Source: Verrucomicrobiota bacterium (GTDB lineage Bacteria > Verrucomicrobiota > Verrucomicrobiia > Opitutales > Seribacteraceae). Taken from it: a stretch of DNA of 64,000 nucleotides. Position 1 is the stretch's first letter, and every line of letters starts with the position of its first letter. Positions 1-32,271 of this stretch are shown piece after piece. The stretch lies in assembly GCA_027622665.1 (NCBI GenBank), contig JAQBYT010000011.1, forward strand, positions 1 to 64,000. Direction: 5' to 3'. The translations under genes and the position numbers were made by a program. The notes under the pieces are model-generated. The model was not told the origin of the DNA. It made no database searches and saw nothing but the letters and a program-made list of their open reading frames with translations.

Positions 1-839
1 CCGGGGTCTGTAAAGTTTCCGTCTCCAGGGTCTGTAAAGTTACCATCACCGGGATCGGTAAAGTTACCATCGCCGGGGTCAGTAAAGTTTCCGTCTCCGG
101 GATCTGTAAAGTTACCATCGCCGGGATCGGTGAAGTTCCCATCGCCGGGGTCTGTAAAGTTTCCGTCTCCGGGGTCTGTAAAGTTGCCATCTCCAGGATC
201 AGTAAAGTTGCCATCTCCGGTGTCTGTAAAGTTACCATCACCGGGATCGGTAAAGTTACCATCACCGGGGTCAGTAAAGTTTCCATCTCCGGGGTCTGTA
301 AAGTTTCCGTCTCCGGGGTCTGTAAAGTTGCCGTCGCCGGGATCAGTAAAGTTACCATCACCGGGGTCTGTGAAGTTACCATCACCGGGATCGGTGAAGT
401 TGCCATCGCCGGGATCTGTAAAGTTACCATCGCCGGGGTCAGTAAAGTTTCCGTCTCCGGGGTCTGTAAAGTTCCCATCACCGGGGTCAGTAAAGTTCCC
501 ATCACCGGGGTCTGTAAAGTTTCCGTCTCCGGGATCTGTAAAGTTACCATCGCCGGGATCGGTGAAGTTCCCATCGCCGGGGTCTGTAAAGTTGCCATCT
601 CCAGGGTCTGTAAAGTTACCATCGCCGGGGTCTGTAAAGTTGCCATCACCGGGGTCTGTGAAGTTACCATCACCAGGATCTGTAAAGTTGCCATCTCCGG
701 GATCGGTAAAGTTTCCATCACCGGGGTCTGTAAAGTTACCGTCTCCGGGGTCAGTAAAGTTACCGTCTCCGGGATCCGTGTAATTCCCATCACCAGTATC
801 GGTGTAGTTCCCATCCCCCGATTCAGTAAAGTTTCCATC
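1..839 (-). repeat. 24-bp coding tandem repeat, 35 units in window, encoding DGN[F/Y]TDPG
   Basis: Asp codons start at 839, 815, ... 23 (period 24). Differences between units are mostly synonymous. The first units are DGNFTESG, DGNYTDTG and DGNYTDPG, and there is one internal DTG variant near 220. Confidence 0.97.
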
Positions 840-2435
840 GACCGTGGCATAGTCACTTACATCGAAAAGATATGTGGAATCGGCCCCAATGGCGCTGACG
901 GCAAGAAAGTCGCCCGAATGAGATATACTGAACCCGAAATTGTCACTCCCCTCACCGTTGGGGGCAACAATTCGCTCGAGGTAGGTAAAAGATCCGTTGT
1001 CCTCAAGGCGATAGAGGTAGGCGGCGCCGGCGTTGGCAACGTTCCCGGGATCAGCGCTTTTGGCGCCTACGACGAGAAGATTCGCCGAGAGAGAGACGGA
1101 ACCTCCAAAATGGTCGTTTGCCGCACCTCCACCGTGATTATTCTTCCAGAGGAAAGTTGCAGTACCGTTTTCCTCCAAACGGTATGTATAAACAGCTCCT
1201 TTGTCGGCAAGAACTCCGGAATCACCTCCAGAATCGGCATATTGGGCGCCGACGGCAAGAATGTTTCCCGATTGGGAGACGGAAATCCCGAATTGGTCCT
1301 CCGACGTGGCGTCGGGGGCGGTTACCTTGGTCAGGTAAGTGGCGCTGCCATTCTGCTCAAGCTTGTATAAATAAGCGGCGCCCGCTGCGGAAACGCCTCC
1401 GGGATCGGACTTGTGGGAACCGACGGCGAGAAGATTTCCCGATAGAGACAAGGAAGCGCCAAATAAATCGCTCGCCCCCCGGTCAGGAGCATAAACTTTG
1501 TCCAGAAAGGTGGCGGTGCCGTTCTGCTCGACACGATATAGATAGGCAGATCCGGAATCCGTTATGCCTCCCGGATCGGAAGTGTGAGCGCCTACGGCAA
1601 GGATATCACCCGATTGGGAAACGGATTTACCAAAATAATCCATCGGCCCACCGTCGGGAGCTATGACCTTGCTCAAATAGGTGGTGCTTCCGTTCTGCTC
1701 CACGCGATACAGGTAGACAGCTCCGGCATCGGAAAAGCCTCCGAGATCGGAACCAAAGGCACCAACTGCCAGAAGGTTTCCCGACTGGGAGATGGAAGAC
1801 CCCAAGAAGTCGTTGGCAGCAGCATCGGGAGCCGTCACCTTTGACAAGTAGGTAGCAGTGCCGTTCTGCTCAGCACGATAAAGATAGGCAGCTCCAACAC
1901 CGCCCGCTGCCCATGAAGCGCCTACGGCAAGAATATCGCCCGATTGGGAGACGGAACCCCCAAATTGCATGTTGGCCGTGCCGTCAGGAGCAGAAACCTG
2001 CGCCATAAAATGAGCAGACAAATTGACCGGGGTCAGGTTTTGGCTCGCGAGATAGCTGTCGATGGCATCCTGATTCGGTAAAACTTGTGGATCGACAATG
2101 TAGTACAACGCAGAAGACACCTCCCACTGCCCATCGAGAAACGTCGTTAGACTGAAACGAATTTCGTCTTGGCCACCGATTACTGCTACTTCCTCAAAAG
2201 TGTAATTACCCTCATAGAGGATATTTACGTTTTCCGCCATGAAGTTGATGTGGGTCGAGTTGAGCTCGAATACAGGAAGCTCGCCTCCGTCGCCCGACAA
2301 GTGCTCGGTTAGTGCAAAATTACTTAAGAGCAAAACGAACAGGAGATGCAACTTGATCCTACAGGAAAAAAACAGCGCCGACTTCGAAATCGTCCGAAAC
2401 ATATTCTTTAGAGAAGAAAAGAAAAATAAATGCAT
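1..2435 (-). CDS. Exported FG-GAP-repeat (beta-propeller) protein with a tandem DGNFTDPG sequon array; C-terminus lies beyond the left window edge
   Basis: Hand translation of the minus strand is open from ATG 2435 (alternative in-frame ATG 2402) to position 1. It shows a hydrophobic N-terminus (LHLLFVLLLSNFAL), seven blades like APDG..D.FG.SVSQSG.ILAVGA...GAAYLY, then the DGNFTDPG repeats. It is absent from the ORF track because there is no stop codon inside the window. Confidence 0.9.
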   Translation of the reverse strand, partial: MHLFFFSSLKNMFRTISKSALFFSCRIKLHLLFVLLLSNFALTEHLSGDGGELPVFELNSTHINFMAENVNILYEGNYTFEEVAVIGGQDEIRFSLTTFLDGQWEVSSALYYIVDPQVLPNQDAIDSYLASQNLTPVNLSAHFMAQVSAPDGTANMQFGGSVSQSGDILAVGASWAAGGVGAAYLYRAEQNGTATYLSKVTAPDAAANDFLGSSISQSGNLLAVGAFGSDLGGFSDAGAVYLYRVEQNGSTTYLSKVIAPDGGPMDYFGKSVSQSGDILAVGAHTSDPGGITDSGSAYLYRVEQNGTATFLDKVYAPDRGASDLFGASLSLSGNLLAVGSHKSDPGGVSAAGAAYLYKLEQNGSATYLTKVTAPDATSEDQFGISVSQSGNILAVGAQYADSGGDSGVLADKGAVYTYRLEENGTATFLWKNNHGGGAANDHFGGSVSLSANLLVVGAKSADPGNVANAGAAYLYRLEDNGSFTYLERIVAPNGEGSDNFGFSISHSGDFLAVSAIGADSTYLFDVSDYATVDGNFTESGDGNYTDTGDGNYTDPGDGNFTDPGDGNFTDPGDGNFTDPGDGNFTDPGDGNFTDPGDGNFTDPGDGNFTDPGDGNFTDPGDGNFTDPGDGNFTDPGDGNFTDPGDGNFTDPGDGNFTDPGDGNFTDPGDGNFTDPGDGNFTDPGDGNFTDPGDGNFTDPGDGNFTDPGDGNFTDPGDGNFTDPGDGNFTDPGDGNFTDTGDGNFTDPGDGNFTDPGDGNFTDPGDGNFTDPGDGNFTDPGDGNFTDPGDGNFTDPGDGNFTDPGDGNFTDP
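860..2010 (-). repeat. Seven FG-GAP-type repeats (~50-60 aa each)
   Basis: Recurrent FG(G/K/A/I/F)S(V/I/L)S.SG.(I/L)LAVG and GA(A/V)YLYR.E.NG motifs on the minus strand. Confidence 0.85.
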
Positions 2436-2659
2436 TATCTATAGGCGAATCACTTGATGAAAGTTGACAACATTACTATTAGCGAGAAAAGGGGAAATCT
2501 TGCATATTTTCAAAAGAAAAAACAAACCCGGAGACTGAATCACTCGCAAGCCGTTGACCGGAGGCAAGTTGGGAAAGTGTAAACATTTCACTTGCGAAGA
2601 AGATTATTGGAACAATAAAAAAGGGACACGGATGAACAGAATATGAGTGCCTGGTGGAC

Positions 2660-5600
2660 TTAACGTAAGACCCGATACACCTTGCCCCATGGCGAAAGGT
2701 AGACCGGAGCAAATAGTTCAGGGTCAAGGTTCTCCATAAGAAATCCTTGTACGAGCAAGGATTGGAATACCTCGTTGGCCATGAAGAACCATGCGGGGAT
2801 TACTTGGTAACCACGCGAGGGTATCTGGATAACCTCTCCCTCGGCGAGCATTTCGCCATCCTCTCGACCCGATGTTTGGGCCAAAGCCAAGGGATTGGCG
2901 CCGTGGCTGGCCGCGATTTGAGCGATGGTCTTGCCTCCGGCCGGGACAGTATAAGTTCGACCACCGAGGAAAGCCGGGAGGTTGCTTTGGATTAAGTGAT
3001 ACTTGGCGCCTTCCACGGGTTTGGGAGGGATTTTCATGAGTTTTCCGGTTTTTGCATCGTGCATGGAGCGATGGAAGGAAAATTTGACGGGTTTAGCCAA
3101 GCCGGGCAATTTGGCCAATCCGGTACCGACGTCAGCCTCGATCTTATAGCCACCACGCATGTTGAGTGTGATTTTGCTACCGGAGGAGGTAACCCAGTCG
3201 GCCTGTGTCATATAGGATTGGCGCTTGAGGTCGGCGGCGGATGCAAAGGAGGGATGGGAATAGGCCTCGGGATCGAAGCGGTCGAGGAGGAATCGCTTGG
3301 CCAAGGTGGAGCGATAGGCATCCGCGGACAAAATGATGAGATCGCGCTGCTCGGGAAGGTAGAGCAAGCGCTGGGGAGAAGACCTTTCGGGGTTTGATGG
3401 TATTCGCAATCCGTCGACTTCGAGGGCGTCGACGACCTTGGCGGGCTCTCCAGGGGCACCTACAATCGACATCGACCCATACGGGGCGACGCCCTTTTGG
3501 TCCTTCGTTCGCAACTTCCCTCGCCGATCGAGACGAAAACCGTTGGCGAAAACAAGGGAATTGCCCTCGCGGCGGGCGTTTCTCAGGATCGACATGGCTT
3601 TGGGCACACGCCCCCCGGGGTATTCACCCAGTTGCTTGTCCATGAACAAGTTTCTAGAACTGAAGCCAATGATGGTGGGAAAGATGCGCATGATTTCGTA
3701 GGGGAAGAAGAGATAGACTTCCCTCGACTTGGTGGGTGGAATATAGTCGGGACTAGCAAGATCGGCCAAGAGTCCCGGATAAAAGCGCAAGTCGGGTGAC
3801 CCGTCCTGAAAGAGAGCTTGAACGGCTGTTGTGTATTCGGATGAGTGTGCCTTGGTGTCGTCGTGAAGGTCCATGTAGGTCTCCGCCTTCAATCGACAAA
3901 GGTTGGCCGCTTTCAGCTGAGAGGTGGAACGCAGGATTTCAGAGGTGAGGAAATTGTCCAAAGTCTGGTGAGCGGGGGAGGTGAAGGTGCGGGCGCCCCC
4001 GTAAAACCAACTGCCTGAACCATAGTCCCACCAAGTAAGGACGAAATCGTCGGGCGCAGCGTCACGATTGAGGGCTTCCAATGCCTCGATGGTCTTACCG
4101 GGATAGACGACGTGTGAATTGTAATTGCGAGCGTGCTGTAAGTTGGGACGAACCAGAAAAACGACGAAACCGCCTACTATGGCCATGGAGAGGATTTTTG
4201 CAGGCCAAGCCGAGGCGGTAAGAAGACTGCTCTTGGGCAAACCCGACAGAGCGGCCCGGACAAGGAACCAGACCACTGCCATAAGGAGAAAAGTAACGCC
4301 CAAGGCGGCGTAGTTGCCAACATGCACGGTGAAGCGAAGACCGACTTTGCCCTCGAAACAATAATAGGCGATGGCGAGGAAGGGGACGGCCATGCAAAAC
4401 TCCCATCTCCAAAAGATAAGGAGTCCCAAACCGAACAGACCGAAGAAGGCAGTGGGAAGAATGGTGGCGTCTTTTCGCTTGGATGCGGGAAGACATCTGG
4501 CGCAAGAACAGGATGGGGTATCGGCGAGAATGCGGTTACGGACAGTCTCGGGAGGAATTTTTCCGGCTTCCCGAATGGTTTGCTTAACGTTGCGGAAATT
4601 CAGTTGGTAATTGGAAGATACCGAAGAAGCGGAAGACACTTTCCCAGGTCCTTGAAGGTAGCTTTCCAGCTTCCCCGTAATTTTTCCGTAAACGCCCCCG
4701 TAAATACCAACGAGCAAGAGGGCGACAGATGCGAATACGACCAAATATTGCGAACGGCGAACGGTGAACGAAGGGGATCGTCGGTCCTGCTCTTTGGCTG
4801 AACTTTTGCCAAGAGACCGGGAGTTAATCTCTGTTTGCGGAACGGTCTCCATAAAACGAAAAACAACAAAAAGAACAGGCAGAAGCAGCAAACCCAACCA
4901 AAAGCGTGTGGGACTCGCCTCGATCATACTGCCTAGGGACCACGCCTCGGCATACATTACCCAAGACAACAGAATGGCGGTTTGACAAGCGAAGCTCAGG
5001 GATGGTGAACGCCCAAAGCTCTTACCCTTTCGATCGATGAGATATTCCAAGACCGACAAGCCGAAACGGTAACCGATGAAAGCTAAGCACATGGTACAGG
5101 TAATGGCCTGACCGGAACCATAAATAAACCTGAATAGATAAAGAGTAACGGCACCTGCCAAAGCAAATTTAAGAGACTCTCTTCTAGAGGCCGCCAGCAG
5201 GAAGAATATCGCTAGAGCCGGCACCGTGATGGAAAACATATCGGTGTCGTAATAACCCGCCAGAGTACGGTTGTAATAACTGTGGGTTACGCCGGCAAGG
5301 CAGGCGGCAAAAAAGCCCCAGAGGGTGGAACCGTATAGGCGACCGATAAGCACGATCGGAATGCAAACGAAACCGGCTACCCACACCGGCAACCACAGCA
5401 GCAATTGCTCAATGGTGAGTGAGGGGAAGAGCTTAAGCAAAGCATAGGGCAAAGCCGTGATTGCTCCCGAGAAAATAGCGGACGGGAGGAGGTTGTTGTT
5501 TTGATGCAAACCCAGATGAGCTTTTTGCAAGATGCTGCCGAAGTAGAAACTGTCGTGCGTGTTGGCCACGGCCACGCCGTCCTTGACCATTTGAGGACGA

Positions 5601-5920
5601 ATTAACTGGGTGTCCCCGTTCGCGTCGACATAAGTGGCCTGGGCAAACTCGATCCACTCCAGTCGTGCATAAAAACTAAGCAAATACGCAAGAAGGATTA
5701 AGATGATGGCGACCGACCAGTGAGTACGATCCTTAGGTAGCTCGATAAGACCGGGGAAAAAACCACGACCACGAACCATCTCGGCGAGGCCTTTGGCGCT
5801 GAAGAATTTCCCGAGCGATTTCCTGATGGACAGATTCAACTCTTCCGAATGCGAGATGGGTACCGCACCAGAATCGGAGGGTTGACCGGAATCATCAACG
5901 GGGTTTTCGTCTTCCTTCAT
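2660..5920 (-). CDS. pglB: Oligosaccharyltransferase, STT3/PglB family, with an extended C-terminus containing a LysM-like domain
   Basis: Multi-TM N-terminal half. Motifs THDSFY, SYYNRTLAGYYDTDM, TIRE, GLRFT, WWDYG (4019-4033) and IMRI, plus a C-terminal KVYRV, all in PglB order. Confidence 0.93.
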   Translation of the reverse strand: MKEDENPVDDSGQPSDSGAVPISHSEELNLSIRKSLGKFFSAKGLAEMVRGRGFFPGLIELPKDRTHWSVAIILILLAYLLSFYARLEWIEFAQATYVDANGDTQLIRPQMVKDGVAVANTHDSFYFGSILQKAHLGLHQNNNLLPSAIFSGAITALPYALLKLFPSLTIEQLLLWLPVWVAGFVCIPIVLIGRLYGSTLWGFFAACLAGVTHSYYNRTLAGYYDTDMFSITVPALAIFFLLAASRRESLKFALAGAVTLYLFRFIYGSGQAITCTMCLAFIGYRFGLSVLEYLIDRKGKSFGRSPSLSFACQTAILLSWVMYAEAWSLGSMIEASPTRFWLGLLLLPVLFVVFRFMETVPQTEINSRSLGKSSAKEQDRRSPSFTVRRSQYLVVFASVALLLVGIYGGVYGKITGKLESYLQGPGKVSSASSVSSNYQLNFRNVKQTIREAGKIPPETVRNRILADTPSCSCARCLPASKRKDATILPTAFFGLFGLGLLIFWRWEFCMAVPFLAIAYYCFEGKVGLRFTVHVGNYAALGVTFLLMAVVWFLVRAALSGLPKSSLLTASAWPAKILSMAIVGGFVVFLVRPNLQHARNYNSHVVYPGKTIEALEALNRDAAPDDFVLTWWDYGSGSWFYGGARTFTSPAHQTLDNFLTSEILRSTSQLKAANLCRLKAETYMDLHDDTKAHSSEYTTAVQALFQDGSPDLRFYPGLLADLASPDYIPPTKSREVYLFFPYEIMRIFPTIIGFSSRNLFMDKQLGEYPGGRVPKAMSILRNARREGNSLVFANGFRLDRRGKLRTKDQKGVAPYGSMSIVGAPGEPAKVVDALEVDGLRIPSNPERSSPQRLLYLPEQRDLIILSADAYRSTLAKRFLLDRFDPEAYSHPSFASAADLKRQSYMTQADWVTSSGSKITLNMRGGYKIEADVGTGLAKLPGLAKPVKFSFHRSMHDAKTGKLMKIPPKPVEGAKYHLIQSNLPAFLGGRTYTVPAGGKTIAQIAASHGANPLALAQTSGREDGEMLAEGEVIQIPSRGYQVIPAWFFMANEVFQSLLVQGFLMENLDPELFAPVYLSPWGKVYRVLR

Positions 5921-5978: not shown

Positions 5979-7700
5979 TCAGCGAAACTTTAGCTGAAGG
6001 GTTTTCAGGCTCTTGCCGAGGCTTGCCAGAAGGTCGGTGGTCTTGGGGGCGTCAAACGAGTTGCCCAGGGGAGTACGGGTGCCCATGCGGATGCGAGCCC
6101 CGAGGTTTTGTATATGGAAGGCGTAGTCGTTGTTTACCATAATGCCCAAAACTTCACCGCTCTTGGCAAAGACGAGGTCACCTTTGCCCGGATCGAACTT
6201 CCCGGTAATGAAGGTAAAGCGGTTGTGTTTCACGCGAATGTAACGGCCGTCGACGCCATCGCGGATAAAATCGGTTTGCCCAAAGTTCGAGTGACCGACG
6301 TCTACAACCACGGCTTCCGAAAACATGTGCGGATCCTTTGGGGTGCGAAAAAGCTTAACGTCGTTCTTTTCCTCCAGTTCGCGAGGGTTGACGTAGACGG
6401 GAACAATCAGCATGCGGGGATCGTCCATGAAGGCGACTTCGTTAACGAGGATAGGTGTCTTGATACCTTTTCCGGTGATAGTTCCACTGACCTCGATGAG
6501 CTTGCGGTGAAAAGGCTCGAGACGGAAAGGACTGTCTTTGGCATGAACTAAAGTATAGGCAAAGGTTCCATCGACGAGGATAATGGTTTCAGTTTCGTAA
6601 GTGTCCACCTTTTCGGCTCCGAGAAAGCCACCCTTGTGACGAAAAGTCATGGTGAGCTTTACTTTGTTTGCCGCATAATTCGAATAAATTTCGTTGAGTG
6701 ACTTGGCTTGACGCTCGCTGATCTGGTTTAGTGCTTCCTTTTGCTCGGCTACTGCCTCGGTGGTGGTTTCGGCGATATTGGCCACTTGCTGGGTGACGCG
6801 CTGAACCTTATCCCCTACCCCCGCCACTTCCTCACTGACGTTGGTGACGGTAGCTTTTACCCCGGCGACCTCTTGACTCACATTGGAAACGGAAGCCTTC
6901 ACACCGGCCACCTCATCGGTGACGGTGCTGATCTTCTCCCCTACCCCGGCGAGGGAAGTCCCTACATTCTTTAGGCCGGTGCCCACATCCTTGAGACCGG
7001 AATTAAGGGCATCGATGCGCTCGTCGATTGCTGCAGTGGACTTAACTAGTTCGTCCCCTCGCTTTCGTTCGCTGGCAAGAGCCTCCTCAGCCTTTGCCGC
7101 GGCTTCAGTCTTGGCTTTGGCCTGCTCCTCGGCCTTGGCTAAATCGACCCTAGCCGTAGCCACTTCGGATTCGGTGCGCGCTTTTTGAGCAGTCAATTCT
7201 TCGGCCTGCTTCTTAGCATCTATGAGGTTTGATGCAAGTAGTTCGACTTCCTTTTGGGCCGCAGCGTTACGGGCAAGAAGTTCTTCGCGCTTACGCTCGA
7301 TATCTTCATTGGCCTGTTCTAGTTTGGCGGCAGCTTTTGCCGCTTCGTCAATCGCCACTTTGTTGTCGGAGATGACGTCGTCCTTTTGGGCAATTAAATT
7401 CTCCTTCTGCTCCAATTCTAGACGGCGTTCCTCGATTTCTTCCTCGAGACGAAGTTTTTCAGTCACAAGATCGTCTTTGTCTCGCAGAAGGTTCGCTTCG
7501 AGAGTTTCGTTGGTAGCCTCAAGTTCAGCCACGACGTCGTCGTAGTTTTCGCCGTCCGAAATTCTTTCCATTACCTCCTTGGAAACAACTTTTTCCTGAT
7601 TTCGAGCTATATCGGCATCCGCCGGCACATCGAAACGCGCCAAGGAGAGTATGCTCAGCAACAGAAAATCGCAGACAACAAGCAGTAAACTATGGTTCAT
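5979..7700 (-). CDS. Membrane-anchored coiled-coil protein: MotB/TolR/ExbD-like N-terminal TM with Asp, long coiled coil, degenerate trypsin-like C-terminal domain
   Basis: N-terminal LLLVVCDFLLLSIL; E/K/A-rich heptads; C-terminal DPGKGDLVFAKSGEVLGI resembles the trypsin-like PGNSGGPL...GEVIGI motif but lacks the Ser. Overlaps the upstream gene by 11 nt. Confidence 0.6.
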   Translation of the reverse strand: MNHSLLLVVCDFLLLSILSLARFDVPADADIARNQEKVVSKEVMERISDGENYDDVVAELEATNETLEANLLRDKDDLVTEKLRLEEEIEERRLELEQKENLIAQKDDVISDNKVAIDEAAKAAAKLEQANEDIERKREELLARNAAAQKEVELLASNLIDAKKQAEELTAQKARTESEVATARVDLAKAEEQAKAKTEAAAKAEEALASERKRGDELVKSTAAIDERIDALNSGLKDVGTGLKNVGTSLAGVGEKISTVTDEVAGVKASVSNVSQEVAGVKATVTNVSEEVAGVGDKVQRVTQQVANIAETTTEAVAEQKEALNQISERQAKSLNEIYSNYAANKVKLTMTFRHKGGFLGAEKVDTYETETIILVDGTFAYTLVHAKDSPFRLEPFHRKLIEVSGTITGKGIKTPILVNEVAFMDDPRMLIVPVYVNPRELEEKNDVKLFRTPKDPHMFSEAVVVDVGHSNFGQTDFIRDGVDGRYIRVKHNRFTFITGKFDPGKGDLVFAKSGEVLGIMVNNDYAFHIQNLGARIRMGTRTPLGNSFDAPKTTDLLASLGKSLKTLQLKFR

Positions 7701-9984
7701 ATCTCTTTTGTTCAGCCTGCATGATGAGCAAGTGATTCCTATAAGGCCTAACGAAGAAAATTTTCAAGGCGGCCACGAAGAGAATGCCGAAGAGGGTAGA
7801 GGTGTAGGCACCGATTAGCGCATCCTGCTTTATGTCAAGCACGAGCAGAAGAATCAGGGAAAGAACAGTCCCACCCAAACCTACGTAGAGCCCGAGATCG
7901 AAGAGAGTATCCTCGTTATCGAGTAGTTTAACTTTCAACCGAGCGTCAGCCTCTTCACGCTTAACTTGTGAAATACGCAACAAGCAGAAGACGAAGATCA
8001 CCAACTGCATTAGAAGAAACGTACCGGCCACCGCTCCGGTTACAATAGTTAGATTGTTATCCGGCATAGCTTCGTCCTTGGCCGACATAAGTAGATTCGC
8101 AAGCGCAAAATCAAAACCGGCCACGGAAACTTGTCCCCGGGGGGTTTGCAAGAGTGTGGGCTCAAGTAAAAAAAGAACAAGTACGCAGGCCATGGAACCC
8201 ACGGTGAAATTGCGTAAAACACGCAAAATCGGGGAGCCTACGCTTCGACTGTAGTCGGGGTTTGGAAGAAGATTGGCGATGGCGGTGCTGAACAAGGCCC
8301 CCGCGATGAGAAAAAGCGACAACTTCAAAAATATGGCCGTTTTTCGGTAGGCGTGAGAGAACCAGGTCAACAATCCGCCACCGATGACAGGAAACACGGG
8401 TTGAATCGTGCTCAAAACCGGACCCGGATTGTGCAGGGGTTTACGCATTTGCAAAAGATACTTCAACGCTTCGGCCCCATGCCCCATGGCAAACTTCATA
8501 TCATCCAAGGCTGCAACCGTAGCGTTTTCGTCGCCATCCGCATCATAAACCGGGAAACTCTTGACATAGGAAAGAACACCCGAAGGATTTCCCGACAACA
8601 AAGTAGCGGCATAAACGACGGAAAGTTCTCGCTGAAATCGTTTCTCCGTTTCCTCGCGCTCGGAATAGAGGTTTTCAAGCTCAACTTTTTTTCCCTCTGT
8701 TTCCTCGGGAGCCAAGGAGGAAATCTCTCTCCGAGCGGCCTTGATTTTTCCGGCCACCTCGGAAAGGGGACGATTCCGCATGCGGATGAGAGTCGCGAGA
8801 TCGAAGACGCCTTTCAAATCGGGGCAGCGCTTCGTAAGTTCGGCCATCTGAATCAAGTTTAGCTTGCGAGCCAACTGCTGTGCAGCCCAATAAAAAGCCC
8901 TTAATTTTTCTTTCGCTTCCAAATTACCCGCCAACAAACCCTGCGAAAGTTTTCCAAGCTCAAAACCGACGTCGGAGCTAAAATAATCCTTTTCGATAGC
9001 CATGGCCGTACCCACCATCATGGGAACGAGCATCGGATACGGAAGCCAGCGACCATGCTCCTCGAGCTTACCGTCCGGACCGATAACGCCCCCGAGCATC
9101 ACCTCGTAGCCTCCGTCTGCAGTGGGACCGGCTTTGATGATACCGAGGCGCGAAAGGGTCGACGGGTAGTCGAGAAAAGCGAGATCCGCCGCCTCAAGCA
9201 CACTGGCATTGGCCTCCATGGCCATTTCGCGTCCTTCGCGCCTTAGGGTGAACCCCCTGGGCAATGAATTTTCGAGGGCCAAGGATTGCCGAGCTTCGAC
9301 CAAGCAATCATCGCGAATTTCTGCCTCACTCGCATTGGCGTCAATTTCGGCTTTTGATCGTAGCGCGACCGAAACCAACAAACGACGCTGAGGAAAGAAA
9401 CGAAAGTTCTCCAATCGAATAAGCTTAGTTCCGGGAAAGCTGCTCAGATTCGGTTCATTGATAACCTTGGCCCAAAACGCGCCGGGGCGACCTTCCTTTG
9501 GTATACTCGCCAAAATCGCCTGAACGTTCTTGTTCGAGCTACTTTCCTCCAATCGTGTCCAGAGATCTCCTTTTGTTTTCGCTCTGTTGTAGACGAAATA
9601 AGCGGAAAAACGCTTTTGCTCTCTGCTGTATTCGTCGAGACCGCCGAAATACTCCCGAAAGGTCAACAAATCGAAAATACTTCCACCGCCGGAAACTTCC
9701 AAATCACGATTACTTTTCTTTCTTTCGTCTACCTCGGACTTGAATTTCGCGGATTCTTCAGCCGGCAAAAGGGGAAGAAGCATTTCCACTGGGCCCAAGT
9801 TGTTTTCTCGGAGTTGTTGCTCGGCTTGGGTCGACAAGGTAGAACTCCCCTCCCCCACCATTGCCAAGGTGTCTTGCGAGATTGAGGTAAAATAGACGGG
9901 CGAAGCCAAACCAAGCAGTAGAACCAAAGTAGCCACAGGGAACCACAAGGCGTTGCCAAATTTCCCAATTACTCGAAATTTCAT
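7690..9984 (-). CDS. Membrane protein with a large extracytoplasmic domain and a C-terminal MotA/TolQ/ExbB-like channel segment
   Basis: N-terminal TM, ~500 aa soluble region, then several TMs ending in VGLGGTVLSL and GAYTSTLFGI (cf. TolQ/ExbB GLxGTVxG and ALxxTxxGL). Confidence 0.6.
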   Translation of the reverse strand: MKFRVIGKFGNALWFPVATLVLLLGLASPVYFTSISQDTLAMVGEGSSTLSTQAEQQLRENNLGPVEMLLPLLPAEESAKFKSEVDERKKSNRDLEVSGGGSIFDLLTFREYFGGLDEYSREQKRFSAYFVYNRAKTKGDLWTRLEESSSNKNVQAILASIPKEGRPGAFWAKVINEPNLSSFPGTKLIRLENFRFFPQRRLLVSVALRSKAEIDANASEAEIRDDCLVEARQSLALENSLPRGFTLRREGREMAMEANASVLEAADLAFLDYPSTLSRLGIIKAGPTADGGYEVMLGGVIGPDGKLEEHGRWLPYPMLVPMMVGTAMAIEKDYFSSDVGFELGKLSQGLLAGNLEAKEKLRAFYWAAQQLARKLNLIQMAELTKRCPDLKGVFDLATLIRMRNRPLSEVAGKIKAARREISSLAPEETEGKKVELENLYSEREETEKRFQRELSVVYAATLLSGNPSGVLSYVKSFPVYDADGDENATVAALDDMKFAMGHGAEALKYLLQMRKPLHNPGPVLSTIQPVFPVIGGGLLTWFSHAYRKTAIFLKLSLFLIAGALFSTAIANLLPNPDYSRSVGSPILRVLRNFTVGSMACVLVLFLLEPTLLQTPRGQVSVAGFDFALANLLMSAKDEAMPDNNLTIVTGAVAGTFLLMQLVIFVFCLLRISQVKREEADARLKVKLLDNEDTLFDLGLYVGLGGTVLSLILLLVLDIKQDALIGAYTSTLFGILFVAALKIFFVRPYRNHLLIMQAEQKRYEP

Positions 9985-14945: not shown

Positions 14946-17900
14946 TTATTTCCCGCCCGCCAGTAAAAACGCCAGCAAATCGTACAGTTCGGTCTCGGAA
15001 ATGGCAAGATCGAGCCCTTGAGGCATGAGGGAGTTGGAGGAGGCCACCTTTTTCGCAACATCGGCAAAGGGAACTCTTGTAACCTTGCCTGCAACGTCTC
15101 GCACCTCGAGCGTCTCGTTACCCACCTCGATCACGATGCCCGAAAGAATGCCTCCGTCCTTGGTCACAATGGAAGTCTGGCGAAATGCAGGATCTACATT
15201 GCGAGAAGGGTCAATCAAGTCTTCCAGCAAGCGTTCGACTCCTCGAACGCTCACGCCATCCAAATCAGGCCCGATTTCGGCTCCTTTACCGCCAATCCGA
15301 TGACATGCGGCGCAATACTTTGCAAATGTCGCGCTTCCGTTGCTCAAAGAGGTTTTCGCTGCTCGAAATCCTGCCGACCTAGAACGAACACGTTCACCTA
15401 ATTGTTCATCGCCGTCAGGCAAGTTCGTGGTCAATCTCTTCAAGCGAATCTCGACTTCGCGAAGCCCCGAACTTAAAAGCAGTTCTCGTATCCCCTTGCG
15501 ATGCAGAAGACGGGCTGAAGCTTTTCCGTGCTCCATGGCTACAAGCAAGATTTCCGCTCCCTGCTTGGAAGTAACTAAATTTGAGGCAAAGGCTTCCTGT
15601 AGTCGTTCAGGCGCAGCGGCGAAAGCGGCGTGAACACTCGCGACATCCTCACTCCCTCCAGTTCCCAGCCAACCGACCATGGCGCTACGCAGTAGCGAGG
15701 GTTGTTCGACATCGGCAACCAATTGGCGAGCCACCGGCCGCGTCCTTTCCTCATCCAGTCGACGACAAGACGCAAGAGCGACCAGTCTAGTTTCCGTCGA
15801 CTCCCCGGCGGAAATCAAAAGAGCAAGCAGGGGATCAAAGAGGTCTACCAGTTTAAGGTCGGCCGCAAGATGAAGAGCGTCTTGCCGAGTAATCGCGTTA
15901 AACTCTAACTCCGCCACGGTCGGCTCAATACGTCCAATAGCCAGCCAAGCATAACCTCCACCAGCATCGCCGTCCGTAAGCTCTAGCACCCCTTGCTTTC
16001 CTGCGTGGTCCTTCAAGTTCCAATCCACCTTGCGAGCGACATCGTTACGAGGCGGAAAAACCCTGAACAGAACTGTGTCATCTTCGGCCAATCGCAGACT
16101 GACAAAATTCTTCTCGTGCGGAGGATTCCCTGGAGAACCTCGATGCCCGGCAATATAGAAACTGAGACGATTGGGAATAGTAAATGGTCGACTCCGATAC
16201 AAGCCGACTAGTTTCTCTCCCTTGGGCAAGCTGCTGAGCATCACCGAATCTCGGCTGTCCACGCATCGACGGGTTTCCTTGGTCCACGGGTTCTCGGACA
16301 GATTTCCCCCAATGGGAACGGGCGTCCAAGAGAGAACACTGCGCTTACCAGTTTTTATCCACTGGCGCACAAGCCTCTCCGACAACGCGCCAAGTTCCTC
16401 GGGGAACTCCTGCCCTCTCCTTTTCGTTCCTTGCCACAATGCGCGCTGGAGGCGGAGGCGGAGGGATATGTCGTCCCCTGCACGTTCGTCGAGCGAACGA
16501 CCGACTCGGACCAAATCCGAGGCATCCACTCTCCCCGACACGAAATCAACCGTCTTCAGGGTAAGCTCTGTCCCTGCGTCCTCCACCTCTTCGAGGTACT
16601 TGAGCGCAGCTTGGGGGGCATGTCCACCCACAGTGACCGTTGCGATAGTGAGGAGATCGTCCGCTTTATTTCCCGCGTGAGTCCAAGGTTCGGCAGGCCA
16701 ACAACCGGCACCGAGCAAATCCCGCAAGGCGATACGCACGACGTGAACTAGATGTGTGTCTTTTTCCACCGCCTCTTTCCATGCCTTCAGCAATGGCGCA
16801 AAATACTCCACTGCGGGATGCCTGCCGGCGGTATCGGCAGCGGCTCTTCGCACGAAAGCGTCCTCATCGTCGAGGAAGTCAGAAACCCACTCTTTCTGCA
16901 AATTACCCAAGGCTTTCCGTTCGCCGAGAATATGACCAAGATGAACACGAACCAAAGGATTTTCGTTTCGACGCAAATCCTCGAAACGCCGGTCGTCCAA
17001 CATCCCGAGACGTTCCAATGCCCATGCCCCGTGGGCCAGTGACTTGGGAGTAGCACTCTTTTCGTTCATCACTTCAGTCAAAACCTCGACCACCTTTTTG
17101 CCTCGCGCAACAAGAAGATTCGTGGCCAGTGTTCGAATGAGCAAGTTCATCTCGCCGAGCTTCGCCGCAAGCCCGGCATCATCCAGCTTCGTCAAGTTGG
17201 CGATGGCAGGTGGCTTCACTTCCTTACGAACAATACGCCAGACTCGCCCGTGTTCGCGATCACGCTTCGGATGATCGAGCTTTACCTCGTAGTGACCGAT
17301 TATCGCGTTGTAAAAGTCCGCTATGTACAAAGCCCCGTCAGGGCCAAGTTGAACGTCCACAGGGCGAAACCAAGGATCATCGCAAGCGATGAAATCGGGT
17401 TGCGTGTCCACTAATCGAGTGGAACCGAAATCGCGCAACTTGTCCCTGTGCACCTTGCCCGTAACGGGATTGCACAAGAAGATATCGCCACGATACTCCT
17501 GCGGGAAATAGTCGGCATCGTAATACGCAACCCCGCATATCCCCGAGGAACCGTGGTTGTGGTCGATCATGTTGGGGCCATAACCCAGCCCGTCGTGCGG
17601 TTTCCCGAAACTCGAATAATAGGCTCCTCGCAAGAGCATCGTAACAGGCTTTGAGTGACAGTCTGCATCGTAGGCATTACCCAAGGAGTCGAAGCACAAC
17701 CCGAAAGGGTTAACCTGGCCCCAAGTTACTTGTTCGAAACGGGAACCATCGGGCCGAAATCGATAGGTATTACCGGAACGCATCTCCGTTACCCGGCCTG
17801 AACCGTCTTTCACGCTGGAAGAATTAGAAAAGCCATGACATCCGTACACCCAGCCATCAACCCAAGGAGTCAACGAGCTAACCATGCCGTGGGTGTCCGC

Positions 17901-18473
17901 GTTTCCGAAACTCCCGTAAAGTTTTTCGCGAATCTCTGCCTTTCCATCACCATCACGATCGACCACACGCCAGATATTAGGAATGGAGTGAACCACCCCC
18001 TCCGAACCGTCTCCAAGCGGAGTTTGCCCTATCGGTATATTCAAGCCCTCAGCAAAACGCGTCACCTTTCTCGGTTTCCCGTCCGCCCCGATGCCCTCGG
18101 CCACCACAAGAAAGTCCCTAGGTTCATGGTCTCCCAATCCTGAAAATCGTCCACGAGGGTCCAAGTCACCCCGAGCCGGAAAGGGATACTCCAGTGAAGA
18201 AGTAACCCACAACCGGCCTTGGGCGTCGAAGTTCAAGTTCATCGGTTGACCGATCAAAGGTTCCGAGAGCACCAGCTGAATCTCAAAACCCTCCGGCAAC
18301 CTGAATTTCTCCTTCTGCTCGTCCGGCGAAAGCGCCTCAGACGGTGCGACAAGTTGCCCCAAAAGCGAGAATGGCGCTCCGCAACACACACCGAAAATCA
18401 AGAAAATGCGAAACAATGACATATCCAAAGGATTTAAAGAAATATCCCAAAACGCCAGCCTGAAGAGAGACAT
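14946..18473 (-). CDS. PVC-type heme-binding CxxCH protein (putative membrane-bound dehydrogenase); start may be 18422
   Basis: FRLPEGFEIQLV..EP, FRPVD..GPDGALYIADFYN..IGHYE propeller, HEAT-like repeats, C-terminal CAACH...IGPDL and SLMP. Confidence 0.88.
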   Translation of the reverse strand: MSLFRLAFWDISLNPLDMSLFRIFLIFGVCCGAPFSLLGQLVAPSEALSPDEQKEKFRLPEGFEIQLVLSEPLIGQPMNLNFDAQGRLWVTSSLEYPFPARGDLDPRGRFSGLGDHEPRDFLVVAEGIGADGKPRKVTRFAEGLNIPIGQTPLGDGSEGVVHSIPNIWRVVDRDGDGKAEIREKLYGSFGNADTHGMVSSLTPWVDGWVYGCHGFSNSSSVKDGSGRVTEMRSGNTYRFRPDGSRFEQVTWGQVNPFGLCFDSLGNAYDADCHSKPVTMLLRGAYYSSFGKPHDGLGYGPNMIDHNHGSSGICGVAYYDADYFPQEYRGDIFLCNPVTGKVHRDKLRDFGSTRLVDTQPDFIACDDPWFRPVDVQLGPDGALYIADFYNAIIGHYEVKLDHPKRDREHGRVWRIVRKEVKPPAIANLTKLDDAGLAAKLGEMNLLIRTLATNLLVARGKKVVEVLTEVMNEKSATPKSLAHGAWALERLGMLDDRRFEDLRRNENPLVRVHLGHILGERKALGNLQKEWVSDFLDDEDAFVRRAAADTAGRHPAVEYFAPLLKAWKEAVEKDTHLVHVVRIALRDLLGAGCWPAEPWTHAGNKADDLLTIATVTVGGHAPQAALKYLEEVEDAGTELTLKTVDFVSGRVDASDLVRVGRSLDERAGDDISLRLRLQRALWQGTKRRGQEFPEELGALSERLVRQWIKTGKRSVLSWTPVPIGGNLSENPWTKETRRCVDSRDSVMLSSLPKGEKLVGLYRSRPFTIPNRLSFYIAGHRGSPGNPPHEKNFVSLRLAEDDTVLFRVFPPRNDVARKVDWNLKDHAGKQGVLELTDGDAGGGYAWLAIGRIEPTVAELEFNAITRQDALHLAADLKLVDLFDPLLALLISAGESTETRLVALASCRRLDEERTRPVARQLVADVEQPSLLRSAMVGWLGTGGSEDVASVHAAFAAAPERLQEAFASNLVTSKQGAEILLVAMEHGKASARLLHRKGIRELLLSSGLREVEIRLKRLTTNLPDGDEQLGERVRSRSAGFRAAKTSLSNGSATFAKYCAACHRIGGKGAEIGPDLDGVSVRGVERLLEDLIDPSRNVDPAFRQTSIVTKDGGILSGIVIEVGNETLEVRDVAGKVTRVPFADVAKKVASSNSLMPQGLDLAISETELYDLLAFLLAGGK

Positions 18474-18477
18474 TGAA

Positions 18478-20565
18478 TCAGGTTACGTGACGGAGGGCAT
18501 CCACCGGGCTCATCGCGGCAGCCTTCCGGGCGGGGTATAGACCAAAGAGAACTCCCGTGGCGACGGCGATTCCAAAGACAAGAGGGAAAGACCACGGCAC
18601 AAGGGATGGCGTCATCTCCTTCATGGATCCGGGAAGCGAGGCATAGGTTTCGGGTGCGAAAGACTCCAGATTGGATAGAAGCATGGAATAGGCAGGTTCG
18701 CAAAGGAAACCGGCAAGCAATCCAAGCAGTCCCCCCGCTGCCGTGAGTGCAATGGTCTCTACCAGAAATTGCTGGGTAACGTCTCGCCGGCGGGCTCCCA
18801 GTGCACGGCGAATACCGATTTCCCGAGTTCGCTCCGTAACGGTTGCAAGCATGATGTTCATTATGCCGATGCCCCCCACCAGTAGTGAAATTGCTGCCAC
18901 GATTCCCATAAGCGCCACGAAGGTAAGGCGGGCTTTTTCGGCCTGCTCCATCAACTCCATAGGTACGGCAATCTGAAAATCCTTCATTCCATGGTCCGTC
19001 TCGAGAATATTCTCAATAAGTTCAGCCACTGCAAAAATCTTGTCGGTATCCTCCATGGTAAACGTGACCTTGGAGTACATGCTCGAACCATCGTACCCTA
19101 GGTAATAGTAATCGAAAACCTTTGCCCAAACCGTCTCGATTGGCACATACACGTTATCCGAGAATTCCTCGCGAAAACCGAGTCGATCATTGTCGTTCAG
19201 ATCCATCCTCTTCCCCACTTCACCAACTACGACATAAAGATTCCCCAGCACATTGACAGTTTTGCCCACGCAATCTCCGAAAGGAAACAGTTTTTGGGCG
19301 ACATTAGCGGACAAAACGCAGACCTCCGATTGCTTTTCGTTATCCTCCTCGGACAAAAAGCGTCCCTGAGTTACCTGAAGATGGTGAAGGTCGCAGAAAT
19401 TGGGAAGGCAGCCCAAGATTTCGGTTCGGCTTTTTCCATCCTTGGTAAAGACGTTGCGACCGTTCAGTTCCCTTGTCGGATAGGCAACGCTAATCCCGGG
19501 AACTGTTTGGAGAATCTTTATCAAGTCTTTTTTCGTGACACCATAGGAATAAAAATTGTCTCCCTTTGACTTTCTCTCTTCATCCGGAGGTCGGAGAGAT
19601 GAAACAATTAGGTTGTTCGCCCCAAGATCCCGTATTTCCGCCTCGGCGCGCGCGGCGATGCCCTCCCCTATTGCCAAAAGCCAGACAACGCTGGCCACGC
19701 CGATGAAAACTCCGAGCGCAGTAAGCCCTGAACGCATGGGATGCGTGAGCATGCTGAGCAAAGCCACCTTGCCGAGGTTCCGCCAAGCTCTTCGCAATCG
19801 CCGAAACGAAAAAACTCCGAGAGTTTGCCTCGCATCGGCATTTGTATCCCGAACATCCTTCGTATCGGCAACAGGACGGAACCGCTCGTCCGACTCAATA
19901 CGACCGTCCTTCATCTTGACCACCCGGCGAGTGCGAGCGGCAACCTCATCCTCATGAGTAACCAGCACGATAGTCTTGCCCTCCGCATTCAGGCGATCGA
20001 GCAGATCGAGAATCTCCTTGGTGGTACGACTATCTAGGTTGCCGGTTGGCTCATCGGCCAAAATGAACACGGGATCATTCACCAGAGCTCTGGCAATCCC
20101 CACGCGCTGCTGTTGACCTCCCGAAAGCTGTTGAGGAAGATGATCGCAGCGATCCCCCAAGCCTACGGCATTGGCCAACTCAATCGGCGCCTCGGAATAT
20201 TGGTCCGCTTGGCGGGAATAGGAACGGGGCATGCGAATATTTTCAAGAGCATCGAGGTAGGGGATCAGATTGTAAGACTGAAAGACGAAGCCGATACGAC
20301 GTCCCCGTATGTCCGATAGAGCGTCATCGGAAAGCTCGGTCACGTCCTCACCCTCCAAAAGGTACTCTCCGGACGTTGGGCGATCCAGGCAACCCAACTG
20401 GTTTAACAGGGTACTCTTGCCCGAACCCGAAGGTCCCATGACCGCAATGTAATCTCCGGCGGGAACGTCGAGGTCGATACCATCGAGAGCACGAACCTCC
20501 TGTTCGCCCACTTGGTAAAAGCGGCACAGCTTACTTACGCGTATGGCAAATTGCGGCTCGGACAT
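18478..20565 (-). CDS. macB: MacB-type ABC transporter, fused ATPase + permease
   Basis: GPSGSGKS, LSGGQQQR, LADEPTGNLD and GGIGIMNIMLATVTERTREIGIRRALGA. Confidence 0.92.
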   Translation of the reverse strand: MSEPQFAIRVSKLCRFYQVGEQEVRALDGIDLDVPAGDYIAVMGPSGSGKSTLLNQLGCLDRPTSGEYLLEGEDVTELSDDALSDIRGRRIGFVFQSYNLIPYLDALENIRMPRSYSRQADQYSEAPIELANAVGLGDRCDHLPQQLSGGQQQRVGIARALVNDPVFILADEPTGNLDSRTTKEILDLLDRLNAEGKTIVLVTHEDEVAARTRRVVKMKDGRIESDERFRPVADTKDVRDTNADARQTLGVFSFRRLRRAWRNLGKVALLSMLTHPMRSGLTALGVFIGVASVVWLLAIGEGIAARAEAEIRDLGANNLIVSSLRPPDEERKSKGDNFYSYGVTKKDLIKILQTVPGISVAYPTRELNGRNVFTKDGKSRTEILGCLPNFCDLHHLQVTQGRFLSEEDNEKQSEVCVLSANVAQKLFPFGDCVGKTVNVLGNLYVVVGEVGKRMDLNDNDRLGFREEFSDNVYVPIETVWAKVFDYYYLGYDGSSMYSKVTFTMEDTDKIFAVAELIENILETDHGMKDFQIAVPMELMEQAEKARLTFVALMGIVAAISLLVGGIGIMNIMLATVTERTREIGIRRALGARRRDVTQQFLVETIALTAAGGLLGLLAGFLCEPAYSMLLSNLESFAPETYASLPGSMKEMTPSLVPWSFPLVFGIAVATGVLFGLYPARKAAAMSPVDALRHVT

Positions 20566-20601
20566 ATCAAGCAGAAACGCGGGTTCTCTTCCCGCAGGAA
20601 A

Positions 20602-22077
20602 TCAATGAGAGATTAAGTCGGTTTCCGAGCTGACGAGAGCAACGCCTTGCCCCGAGGACGAGTTGTCCGAGAAGGTGACAATGTCACGAAACTCACTGGC
20701 GTTCACCACTACCTGCTCGCCTTCGCTGAGGCCGGACTCCACTACGGTGCTGGCATCATTCGCTGAACCTAGCCGGACAGCTCTTGCTTGGAAATCACCC
20801 AGTTCGTCGACTGCAAGGCAATAAGAAGTCCCTTTAACACGCAGAACGGCATGAAGAGGAATCTGCAACGCACTGGGAATTTGCTCGACCAGTATACTAA
20901 CCTTTGCAGTCATGCCGGGACGAAGACCATCGGGGGGATTCTCGATGAGAATTTCAGTGGCGTATTCCTTGATGTGAGCTGTGTAACGACTGGCGGAAGG
21001 GATTGGATAATCTCCCACTTTCACAACCCGGCCATGCAAAACGAGTTTGCGAGACGAGAATATGGATATGTCGACTGGCATACCGGGTTCAACTTGCTCC
21101 ACTCGGCTTTCGTTCACTTTGGCTATGACCCTCATGTTCGAAGGATCTGGAAGTCGAATAATCGCTTGGCGCTCACGCACGGGTCGACCTGCCTCGATAA
21201 GGATGCCGTCTGAAGAAGACGAAGTGCGATTAGCGTAGGTAACCTCGCCCGAGGCAGGAGCCTTGATCAGGCACTTCGATATCTGCTCCTCGATCTCGGC
21301 TTCCTGAGCTACTTCCAGTTCATAGGAGTTGCGACGGGAAAGGAGGCGAGCCTCGGCGGTTAGGATGGAAGCGTTTAGATCGTTCACCTTTGCCTTTCGT
21401 GAATGCACTCTCAACACATCGAGCTTGGTCAAGGAGAGATCAAGATCCTTGCGAGACTTCTCCACCGCGAAGGCATCGGCTCCGAGCTGCGTTTCGGAAA
21501 TATAACCCTTGATCGCCAATTTCTTACTGTAATCATGATATTCCTGGGCACGACGCAAGTTTTCTCGAGCTACGAACACCGCGCCCTCAAGTTGCTGAAG
21601 ATCTTGACGATAGGAGCCTGATAGGTACTCATCCATGGCAAGTGTCGCAGCCTCGACGTCGGCCTCAGCTTGTACGAGCACGGCCTTTGCCTGATGTACG
21701 TCTATGCGTTGAGTAAGTAAATCTTTCTGCAATGCGGAATCGTCCAAACGGACAAGAAAGTCCCCCTCTTTCACTTGACTACCTTCCGGCACGATTTCGA
21801 GGATGTTCACACCTACAGAGTTGCGACTCTTCACCTCGCAAAGTACATCCACGTTATGGGCGCTCTCGATTTCCCCCGGCTCCACTATCTCCAAACGGAA
21901 CTCCTTCCGAACGACTTGTTCGAACAAAGCCTCGGGCAAGACCTCCTCACTCTCACCGCCCGCAAGTAGCCACCAAGCAACGACAACTGCGCCGCCACTC
22001 GCCAAGCCAATAACAGCCTTGGCCGTGGCAAATCCTCTACGGCGTGGTTTTCTAAGGTTTTTGATTTTTGGAATCAT
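20602..22077 (-). CDS. MacA/HlyD-family periplasmic adaptor subunit
   Basis: N-terminal TM, VPEGSQVKEGD lipoyl half-motif, helical hairpin, IKAPASG and LRPGMTAKV. Confidence 0.9.
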   Translation of the reverse strand: MIPKIKNLRKPRRRGFATAKAVIGLASGGAVVVAWWLLAGGESEEVLPEALFEQVVRKEFRLEIVEPGEIESAHNVDVLCEVKSRNSVGVNILEIVPEGSQVKEGDFLVRLDDSALQKDLLTQRIDVHQAKAVLVQAEADVEAATLAMDEYLSGSYRQDLQQLEGAVFVARENLRRAQEYHDYSKKLAIKGYISETQLGADAFAVEKSRKDLDLSLTKLDVLRVHSRKAKVNDLNASILTAEARLLSRRNSYELEVAQEAEIEEQISKCLIKAPASGEVTYANRTSSSSDGILIEAGRPVRERQAIIRLPDPSNMRVIAKVNESRVEQVEPGMPVDISIFSSRKLVLHGRVVKVGDYPIPSASRYTAHIKEYATEILIENPPDGLRPGMTAKVSILVEQIPSALQIPLHAVLRVKGTSYCLAVDELGDFQARAVRLGSANDASTVVESGLSEGEQVVVNASEFRDIVTFSDNSSSGQGVALVSSETDLISH

Positions 22078-22125
22078 CGGAAAAATTGGGCGTAGAATAA
22101 ATGTGTTGGTACAGAGGAGGCAAGA

Positions 22126-24537: not shown

Positions 24538-24610
24538 AGTCAGCTAATGTCCCGATACGCAAAACCTCGGACAAATCCGAGGCCTCGCGAAGAAAAACTT
24601 TCGAGAACCG

Positions 24611-26077: not shown

Positions 26078-26146
26078 GTTAGTAGTCTCCGATTAAGTAT
26101 TAATGTGCTTAGTAAAATGTGCAGCTAAACGATGATGAGGTCAATC

Positions 26147-32035: not shown

Positions 32036-32271
32036 GAATAAAAAACTATTGAACACATCCGATTCGACAAACAAGCAGGCAGGATGAAAATATTTTGCTT
32101 AAATATTTCTTAGCGCGCAAGGAAAACGTCATGCCTAAGCCTAATTTGTAAAACCAAGCCGTTAAGTGAAGCAACCCACGGATTGGAATGGCGCTCACCG
32201 AACTGCGTGGAGTATCCTATGGAAGTGAAGAATCCCGGATACAGTCTCCTCGCCTACTTCTTGCACTACGG

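Follow-up and report, generated by a model that had tools for sequence, protein, structure and literature searches.

The stretch of DNA analysed here (the window; 64,000 nucleotides) begins at the start of contig C43 (JAQBYT010000011.1) of the Verrucomicrobiota genome G000 (GCA_027622665.1; 4.5 Mb, 66 contigs, 93.5% complete), a member of the Opitutales family Seribacteraceae, and opens with two co-directional genes, one for an exported stalk protein built around a tandem array of N-glycosylation sequons and the other for a PglB-type oligosaccharyltransferase (OST). Comparison of these genes with related genomes suggests that this marine family very probably runs a general, Campylobacter-like protein N-glycosylation system, as judged from an excess of extended sequons (D/E-x-N-x-S/T) in exported proteins and from two sequons gained in SecDF. 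An inner-membrane PglB-type OST would transfer a lipid-linked glycan to the Asn of D/E-x-N-x-S/T in many exported proteins, with the neighbouring stalk as one substrate among many.

The preliminary description of the window proposed that related genomes be searched for STT3/PglB and that neighbours and secretomes be scored for D/E-x-N-x-S/T; the OST proved to be widespread in the family, and the motif to be enriched in its exported proteins. Among exported and membrane proteins, a heuristically defined class of 1091 proteins from which the array gene was left out, an acidic residue occupies position -2 in 848 of the 3082 N-x-S/T sites (27.5%), 2.9 times the value for a local shuffle. The corresponding controls gave 10.6-11.4% acidic residues at offsets -4, -3, -1, +3 and +4, 11.7% for N-x-other, 9-12% when Q, D, S or G stood in for N, and 15 of 225 sites for N-P-S/T. 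Cytosolic enzymes defined by motif (169 proteins) carry the acidic residue at 36 of 292 sites (12.3%; background 11.5%, p 0.70). In the stretches of five OST-positive relatives, 355 of 1472 sites are extended (162 of 965 in proteins below 1000 aa), compared with 60 of 776 in five OST-negative relatives. For proteins sharing the C-terminal domain of the stalk protein (see below), the counts are 64 of 168 in eleven proteins of G000 and 1 of 43 in five proteins of OST-negative genomes.

The same signature is found in individual protein families. Leaving aside a universal motif, the SecDF proteins of 27 family genomes hold 53 sequons, with two shared sites (present in 23/27 and 26/27 genomes) where the x residues vary, whereas the orthologues from 28 genomes of other families hold six sequons outside this motif and none (0/28) at those two sites. 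The universal motif itself, a DANLT site, was discounted as evidence, being found in 27 of 28 OST-negative orthologues. Protein L213 has 147 of its 233 sites extended in 27 family genomes; no full-length match to it was found in 31 genomes of other families, which leaves the comparison without an outgroup. Among blades of FG-GAP propellers, 56 of 78 in family paralogues have a sequon in the loop, compared with 8 of 232 in other FG-GAP matches, and those eight blades lie mostly in proteins resembling family members. The giant surface proteins of G000 carry 30-80 sites each, and dozens of unlinked proteins share the motif. An independent array (G000:C42:25801-30714; L147), open at the contig end, places 31 of 36 Asn in D/E-x-N-x-S/T over ~270 aa, with a period of ~7 and varying x positions, in a protein with 56 sites. 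Another protein of the same genome (G000:C30:114103-121269; L148), with 31 sites in total, starts with 16-residue repeat units, each containing a single [DE]GNQT sequon.

The assignment of a PglB-type OST to 2660..5920 (minus strand; 1086 aa) in the preliminary description was borne out. Pfam STT3 and STT3-PglB_core pass their cut-offs (PF02516, 71.9 bits against 24.5; PF21436, 74.7 bits against 23), all four PDB sequence matches are Campylobacter PglB (C. lari PglB being the best), and the protein model (pLDDT 82.8) likewise has C. lari PglB as its best fold match (E 2e-24, versus 7e-8 for archaeal AglB). The STT3 membrane domain, the core domain and the GT-C fold place the protein in the STT3/AglB/PglB group; its gene has a single copy in the genome and is a core gene of the family. 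Residues were mapped to C. lari PglB from a profile alignment with 3rce and 5ogl, the numbering being counted off the alignments, and invariance refers to 51 family OSTs picked from 120 listed. OST residues D123, R218, D225, D227, Y267 and E451 correspond to D56, R147, D154, D156, Y196 and E319 of C. lari PglB, and R463, R529, W630-D632 and I746 to R331, R375, W463-D465 and I572; all are invariant (51/51). The metal-binding and catalytic acids (D56, D154, D156 and E319) and the phosphate-binding R375 and Y196 thus all have equivalents. The catalytic D123 is preceded by H122, which replaces N55 (H122-D123; 5552..5557, minus strand; invariant in 51/51), and the segment from E451, in the TIxE motif, to R463 lies at 4532..4570 (minus strand). 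The Ser/Thr pocket is complete, with WWDYG (W630-G634) and the isoleucine I746 of the MI motif, which is part of the definition of this pocket (PMC8342417, in part). As in Campylobacter-type PglB, an Arg that reads the acidic -2 residue is present, R463 aligning with R331. Given that R331, although it binds the -2 Asp, is not enough by itself to set the -2 rule (PMC4894442, in part), the proteome-wide sequon count is the stronger evidence. From its aligned residues, the acceptor side of the OST is predicted to work like that of Campylobacter PglB.

Several observations weigh against a general Campylobacter-like system. The heuristic cytoplasm-like class of proteins is also elevated (16.7%), three of eight chunks of G000 show no -2 enrichment, and the genome G020 taken alone is not significant (27/175). 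The pooled counts, moreover, overstate independence, because the kin genomes are not independent and the SecDF and proteome patterns amount to one evolutionary event seen many times. In the enzyme, the Y468 equivalent is Ser in 51/51 family OSTs, the DGGK motif is gone, and the score against the NCBIfam PglB equivalog NF050801 is 196.6 bits, with the cut-off at 1300. No gene of the clustered Campylobacter donor pathway (PglC, A, J, H, I, K, D, E and F) flanks the OST, and strong matches to the PglK-like flippase discussed below occur in just 22 of 52 family genomes, with none in G022, G025 and G027. Finally, the sequon array is not conserved, being absent from the sequon-free stalk of G023, short and degenerate in G022 and lacking from most of the paralogous stalks read, and the join of its gene across contigs C43 and C57 has synteny as its sole basis. 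In G000, contigs C65 and C4 (~570 kb) have 7-11% acidic residues at -2, without enrichment, in contrast to the remainder of the genome; perhaps they hold later-acquired genes or an exported enzyme class escaping glycosylation.

The donor side of the OST differs conspicuously from that of its Campylobacter homologues. WWDYG (630-634) is followed by S635 at the position of C. lari Y468 (4016..4033, minus strand; WWDYGSG in 51/51), and the alignment shows TSPAH (647-651; 3968..3982, minus strand; 46/51) in place of the DGGK-H motif, with TSPAH or a similar sequence in 51/51 family OSTs. The DGGK motif is said, in the title of one paper known through a reference, to be essential. Its role is treated in PMC8342417 (in part), and Y468 has been reported as essential in C. 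lari PglB (PMC6215017, in part). Among 65 outside relatives, 24 of the 25 with a small residue at 468 are also without a DGGK-like motif, and 31 of the 40 with Tyr or Phe at this position retain one; by these counts, the two changes appear to travel together. As both donor-side features fail, the enzyme is best classified as a member of the STT3/PglB superfamily outside the Campylobacter equivalog. The family-wide loss of Y468 and DGGK hints at an unusual sugar donor, and an assay with the C. jejuni glycan alone could, given these replacements, produce a false negative. With Y468 changed to S, DGGK lost and N55 changed to H, the first sugar or its binding mode would probably be unlike that of Campylobacter. 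It is possible, and we put this forward only tentatively, that the OST represents a PglB branch without both known contacts that select a 2-acetamido reducing-end sugar, and with N55 changed too, which transfers glycans rejected by Campylobacter PglB (e.g. hexose-initiated ones) onto a strict D/E-x-N-x-S/T, and that the strain builds a surface brush of at least 47 N-glycans at 8-residue spacing.

An uncharacterised PglB branch (the P0166 cluster and P0168-P0189) has WWD[Y/W]G[S/T] and no DGGK. Some of its members carry Verrucomicrobiales and Limisphaerales labels, so marine Verrucomicrobiota may have gained N-glycosylation in more than one event, or at a time before the Opitutales family. As for the donor pathway, contig C13 carries a polysaccharide cluster with a PglK-like ABC transporter, two phosphoglycosyl transferases (monotopic), a WecA-like gene, a LegC aminotransferase and glycosyltransferases. 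None of the 21 proteins scanned in this cluster reaches a Pgl cut-off (310 bits against 1000 for the PglK-like flippase), and the cluster may serve another polysaccharide. Other surface glycan and sorting systems of G000 include PseB and PseI of the pseudaminic acid pathway, both above cut-off, and an exosortase-like gene (C40:7819-9898 and C39:8257-9960).

The stalk gene is represented in the window by its 5' part (3..2435, minus strand; ATG at 2435; 811 aa), and the open end of this open reading frame (ORF) is also the end of the window and of the contig. A probable signal peptide, judged by eye from a basic stretch followed by a hydrophobic one (2304..2435, minus strand), precedes seven FG-GAP repeats of a beta-propeller (855..1973, minus strand; Pfam), six of which have an extended sequon at the same loop, and the tandem array of 35 DGN[F/Y]T sequons with an 8-residue period (3..839, minus strand). 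The counts given in the preliminary description, 35 array sequons plus eight outside for a total of 43 extended sites in an ORF open at the contig end, hold; these are 43 of the 45 N-x-S/T sites of the ORF. Two of the eight non-array sequons are near the N-terminus and the other six are those of successive FG-GAP repeats. The unit had been given as DGN[F/Y]T-DPG; of the 46 full units on both contigs, 39 are DGNFTDPG and seven differ at positions 4, 6, 7 or 8. At the DNA level, there are 36 distinct units among the 46, and of the 142 departures from the consensus unit, 131 fall at third codon positions, while D, G, N and T of the unit are invariant in 46/46. Given this diversity, the third-position bias and the invariant residues, the array is under protein-level selection and not a product of chance or assembly stutter. 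A Cornifin match on the array was below usefulness.

The preliminary description also called for the full ORF and its anchor. A probable 3' half was located on contig C57, the only other contig end of G000 with the repeat, but the join is by synteny, without sequence overlap. This part (C57:21098-22584, minus strand; assigned by the repeat and synteny) adds 12 more sequons, an acidic region, an FN3 domain and a Trp-rich C-terminal domain. A join by sequence overlap was rejected, there being no overlap of 16 nt or more, and only 2 of 11 distinct array units of C57 recur on C43, so the repeat number is known only as at least 47. In relatives, the gene next after pglB, encoding a FecR-domain protein, best matches C57 at a point 228 bp past the stalk ORF (5/5 queries), and the short stalk gene of G022 has an array that ends with the same ATIDL junction as on C57. 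The joined stalk protein would probably have at least 55 sequons, with 47 of these in the spacer, which measures 376 residues or more. Fold searches placed the FN3 part only (best Z 10.6, rmsd 2.4, 94 aligned residues), the Trp-rich domain being barely tested, and there was no Foldseek match at E 0.001 for the C-terminal part of the stalk. No part of the stalk on C57 has a Pfam or NCBIfam name, the profile of the FN3 and C-terminal domains has no PDB sequence match, and Atlas matches were limited to Verrucomicrobiota clusters without names, with low recognition. The Trp-rich domain (~95 aa; C57:21098-21400, equal to L001:18514-18813) might serve as an anchor or export signal. It recurs in many large exported proteins across the family, being shared by numerous proteins in 74 of 76 genomes, and some other Opitutales have it too; it is present in 3 of 10 other-family genomes tested. 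Taken together, the protein would carry its FG-GAP propeller at the N-terminal end of an unfolded, acidic spacer (at least 376 residues), beyond which lie the FN3 domain and the Trp-rich domain, a putative anchor or export signal common to many surface proteins of the family; dense glycosylation would probably turn the sequon-built spacer into a brush, making the stalk stiffer and shielding it. The adjoining FecR-domain gene of C57 (14463-20870; L001:11879-18286) encodes an Ala/Asp/Glu-rich protein of 2135 aa with an N-terminal FecR domain and almost no sequons. It is the family-wide downstream neighbour of pglB, and a probable outer-membrane protein gene then follows.

The enzyme and the stalk had been interpreted in the preliminary description as a dedicated OST-substrate pair, in which the enzyme acts mainly on its neighbour and the linkage is functional. 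The two genes are indeed co-directional and, exactly as described, 224 bp apart, a scan of the intergenic region (2436..2659; 40% GC) found no sigma-70 promoter-like or terminator-like site, and the adjacency is common to G022, G023, G025 and G026. However, the OST proved to be a family-wide housekeeping gene in a conserved neighbourhood, with two upstream genes, a deformylase, Fur and a TonB receptor on one side and the FecR-domain gene on the other, and the motif recurs in dozens of proteins encoded elsewhere. The stalk gene stands between pglB and the FecR-domain gene in five of the six readable genomes of genus g1 (G000, G022, G023, G025 and G026) and in none of the genomes read from genera g3, g4 and g5, where, as in G027 of genus g1, the FecR-domain gene directly follows pglB. 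Sequons are, furthermore, enriched genome-wide and in the housekeeping SecDF. Because the array gene is a recent insertion beside pglB and its G023 orthologue is sequon-free, a dedicated pair is most improbable and already largely refuted by the neighbourhood data.

Comparison of the stalks themselves points in the same direction. That of G025 is near-identical to the G000 protein; that of G022 has a different N-terminus and a short degenerate array with four sequons; and that of G023 keeps the eight non-array sequons and one array unit, followed by (GGYQSDD)n without sequons. The preliminary description had tied its reading to the conservation of sequon positions in homologous arrays, which turned out to be partial, the G023 stalk being sequon-free and that of G026 starting with a non-sequon unit. 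At 24 paralogous loci, drawn from the loci listed (which include two listings with 25 loci each), sequon-free Gly/Tyr/Ser/Gln repeats make up many or most stalks, and a D-x-N-x-T array occurs in one (G028). The stalk would thus seem to be an exchangeable spacer, its sequon version a strain-level variant and the propeller sequons the conserved part. Eight stalks (L033, L038, L039, L047, L051, L054, L056 and L059) have GGYQSDD, GYHSGD, GYSSP or GYQT repeats without Asn, which might undergo O-linked or Tyr-linked modification or be plain spacers.

Such variation bears on a further alternative, doubtful yet considerably more plausible than a dedicated pair, namely, that the system works but the array is only partly glycosylated or a neutral spacer, its unit having been expanded by slippage and kept as an acidic, possibly cation-binding linker. 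Sequon-free orthologous stalks indicate that the spacer needs no N-glycans, and the 8-residue spacing may limit occupancy; conversely, the natural array of C. jejuni Cj1433c (GlycoTag), with a 7-residue period, takes up to 9 glycans (PMC4879521, in part). The composition of the unit can be read both ways: G varies no more than D, N and T do, so that selection is not on the sequon alone, whereas D, N and T are kept in 46/46 units while positions 4, 6, 7 and 8 vary, and the independent arrays of C42 and G028 have variable x positions. An unrelated acidic protein, P0392, has a similar DGNxTxP linker. This protein carries a twin-arginine-like leader, and its C-terminal linker consists of GDGNxTxP units. 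Unlikely, by comparison, is the possibility that the OST is inactive or performs other chemistry and that the sequon excess reflects a structural motif, such as turns or calcium sites in cadherin-like and propeller repeats. Many sequons do sit in repeat domains, the universal D-x-N-x-T of SecDF is unrelated to the OST, and both Y468 and DGGK are replaced. Nevertheless, the OST gene is intact and conserved family-wide, its donor-side replacements recur together in nearly all of the outside relatives with a small residue at 468, the FG-GAP blades of other matches are without the motif, and the signal shows specificity for position -2, for exported proteins and for OST-positive genomes.

The OST was found in 64 of 76 family genomes, including 24 of 26 high-quality ones, and in all five genera (5/5). 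Of five OST-less family genomes that were checked, three have the upstream gene cut off by a contig end, and the other two lack this gene as well. The four closest OSTs (64-89% identity) come from records titled Opitutia, Opitutales or Puniceicoccaceae (PVC group). No OST was detected in the order's other families (190 genomes) or in 400 genomes sampled across the phylum; the latter figure does not amount to absence, because a wider search recovered related OSTs labelled Verrucomicrobiales and Limisphaerales, plus one labelled Parcubacteria. This distribution suggests that the OST was acquired at the family level. Most of the nearest outside relatives are without names and do not, therefore, point to a donor lineage, no phage carrying the OST was found, and the OST tree (FastTree with midpoint root; 75 sequences, the first 75 candidates by rank, one fragment dropped) supports no order of events. 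In seawater RNA libraries from four studies, contigs match pieces of pglB at 95-100% identity and cover the 5' end of the stalk gene, leaving most of the array gene uncovered, which proves nothing; the pglB pieces may reflect expression, but may also be DNA carry-over.

Besides its donor side, the OST has two inserts. A CxCxxC motif lies directly after R463 (4493..4510, minus strand; 35/51 family proteins), at a gap in C. lari PglB, and a LysM-like segment (aa 988-1034; 2819..2959, minus strand; 46/51), modelled as strand-helix-helix-strand, is part of an extended periplasmic C-terminal region. Pfam LysM is above its cut-off in the relative P0083 and below it in the copy of the window. The inserts raise the possibility of a peptidoglycan-tethered or a metal- or disulfide-stabilised enzyme. 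Some family OSTs carry STT3 or K07151 labels in databases. In G020, the OST and its neighbours (C8:132832-135957; L161) are broken by several stops and frameshifts, probably sequencing errors, since all genes of that stretch are affected. The two genes upstream of pglB (5979..9984, minus strand), of unassigned function, encode a coiled-coil protein and a membrane protein with four extended sequons and stay beside pglB across the family. Farther along the window are ordinary PVC-type genes (14946-32074), including those for a DUF7133/cytochrome c protein, an ABC exporter with an outer-membrane efflux protein, DUF1501 and a DUF1549/DUF1553 WD40 protein, as well as ribonucleotide reductase (40109-43393).

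With C. lari and C. jejuni PglB (PDB 3RCE, 5OGL and 6GXC), the OST of the window shares the GT-C fold, two DxD-type sites, TIxE, R331, R375, Y196, WWDYG and I572, and with the Campylobacter pgl system as a whole a predicted D/E-x-N-x-S/T acceptor, many putative exported substrates and sequon enrichment in exported proteins. It differs in its sequence (22-23% identity), length (1086 aa versus ~710) and phylum, in the changes Y468 to S, DGGK to SPA and N55 to H, in the CxCxxC and LysM-like inserts and in the lack of an adjoining pgl cluster. Like the PglBs of Desulfovibrio, it is a bacterial single-subunit OST outside Campylobacterota (PMC4894442 and PMC12229607, both in part), whereas those enzymes relax the -2 rule and the Opitutales proteome signal is specific to D/E at -2. 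Dense glycosylation of surface proteins is also known in the PVC group from the S-layer of anammox Planctomycetota (PMC5088730; bioRxiv 10.1101/2020.12.03.409086, in part), for which, in contrast, O-linked glycans were reported, the available main text of the preprint containing no PglB, STT3 or N-linked term. Full-text searches, with most subscription papers and supplements outside their scope, brought up no study describing PglB systems in Verrucomicrobiota or Opitutales; PMC4973528 (in part) contains PglB, Verrucomicrobia and oligosaccharyltransferase as separate mentions, and there is no Verrucomicrobia term in PMC11164674 or in the available part of PMC12229607. Within these searches, the novelty suggested in the preliminary description holds for the system but not for natural sequon arrays, which are already known from C. 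jejuni (PMC4879521, in part). The Cj1433c array has 9 repeats of 7 residues, compared with at least 47 of 8 here, in a propeller-stalk-FN3 surface protein with eight further sites.

At about five times the length of this one natural sequon array found in print, the array offers a test of how densely an OST could load an unfolded chain. Furthermore, the dependence of PglB on the reducing-end sugar limits bioconjugate engineering (PMC11164674), and the OST clade without Y468 and DGGK is a direct candidate for a wider donor range. If the reading proposed here is true, general bacterial N-glycosylation, for which Campylobacterota and Desulfobacterota have supplied most of the characterised cases, would extend to a marine family of Verrucomicrobiota, in which the gain of one enzyme would have reshaped the proteome, with new conserved sequons even in SecDF.

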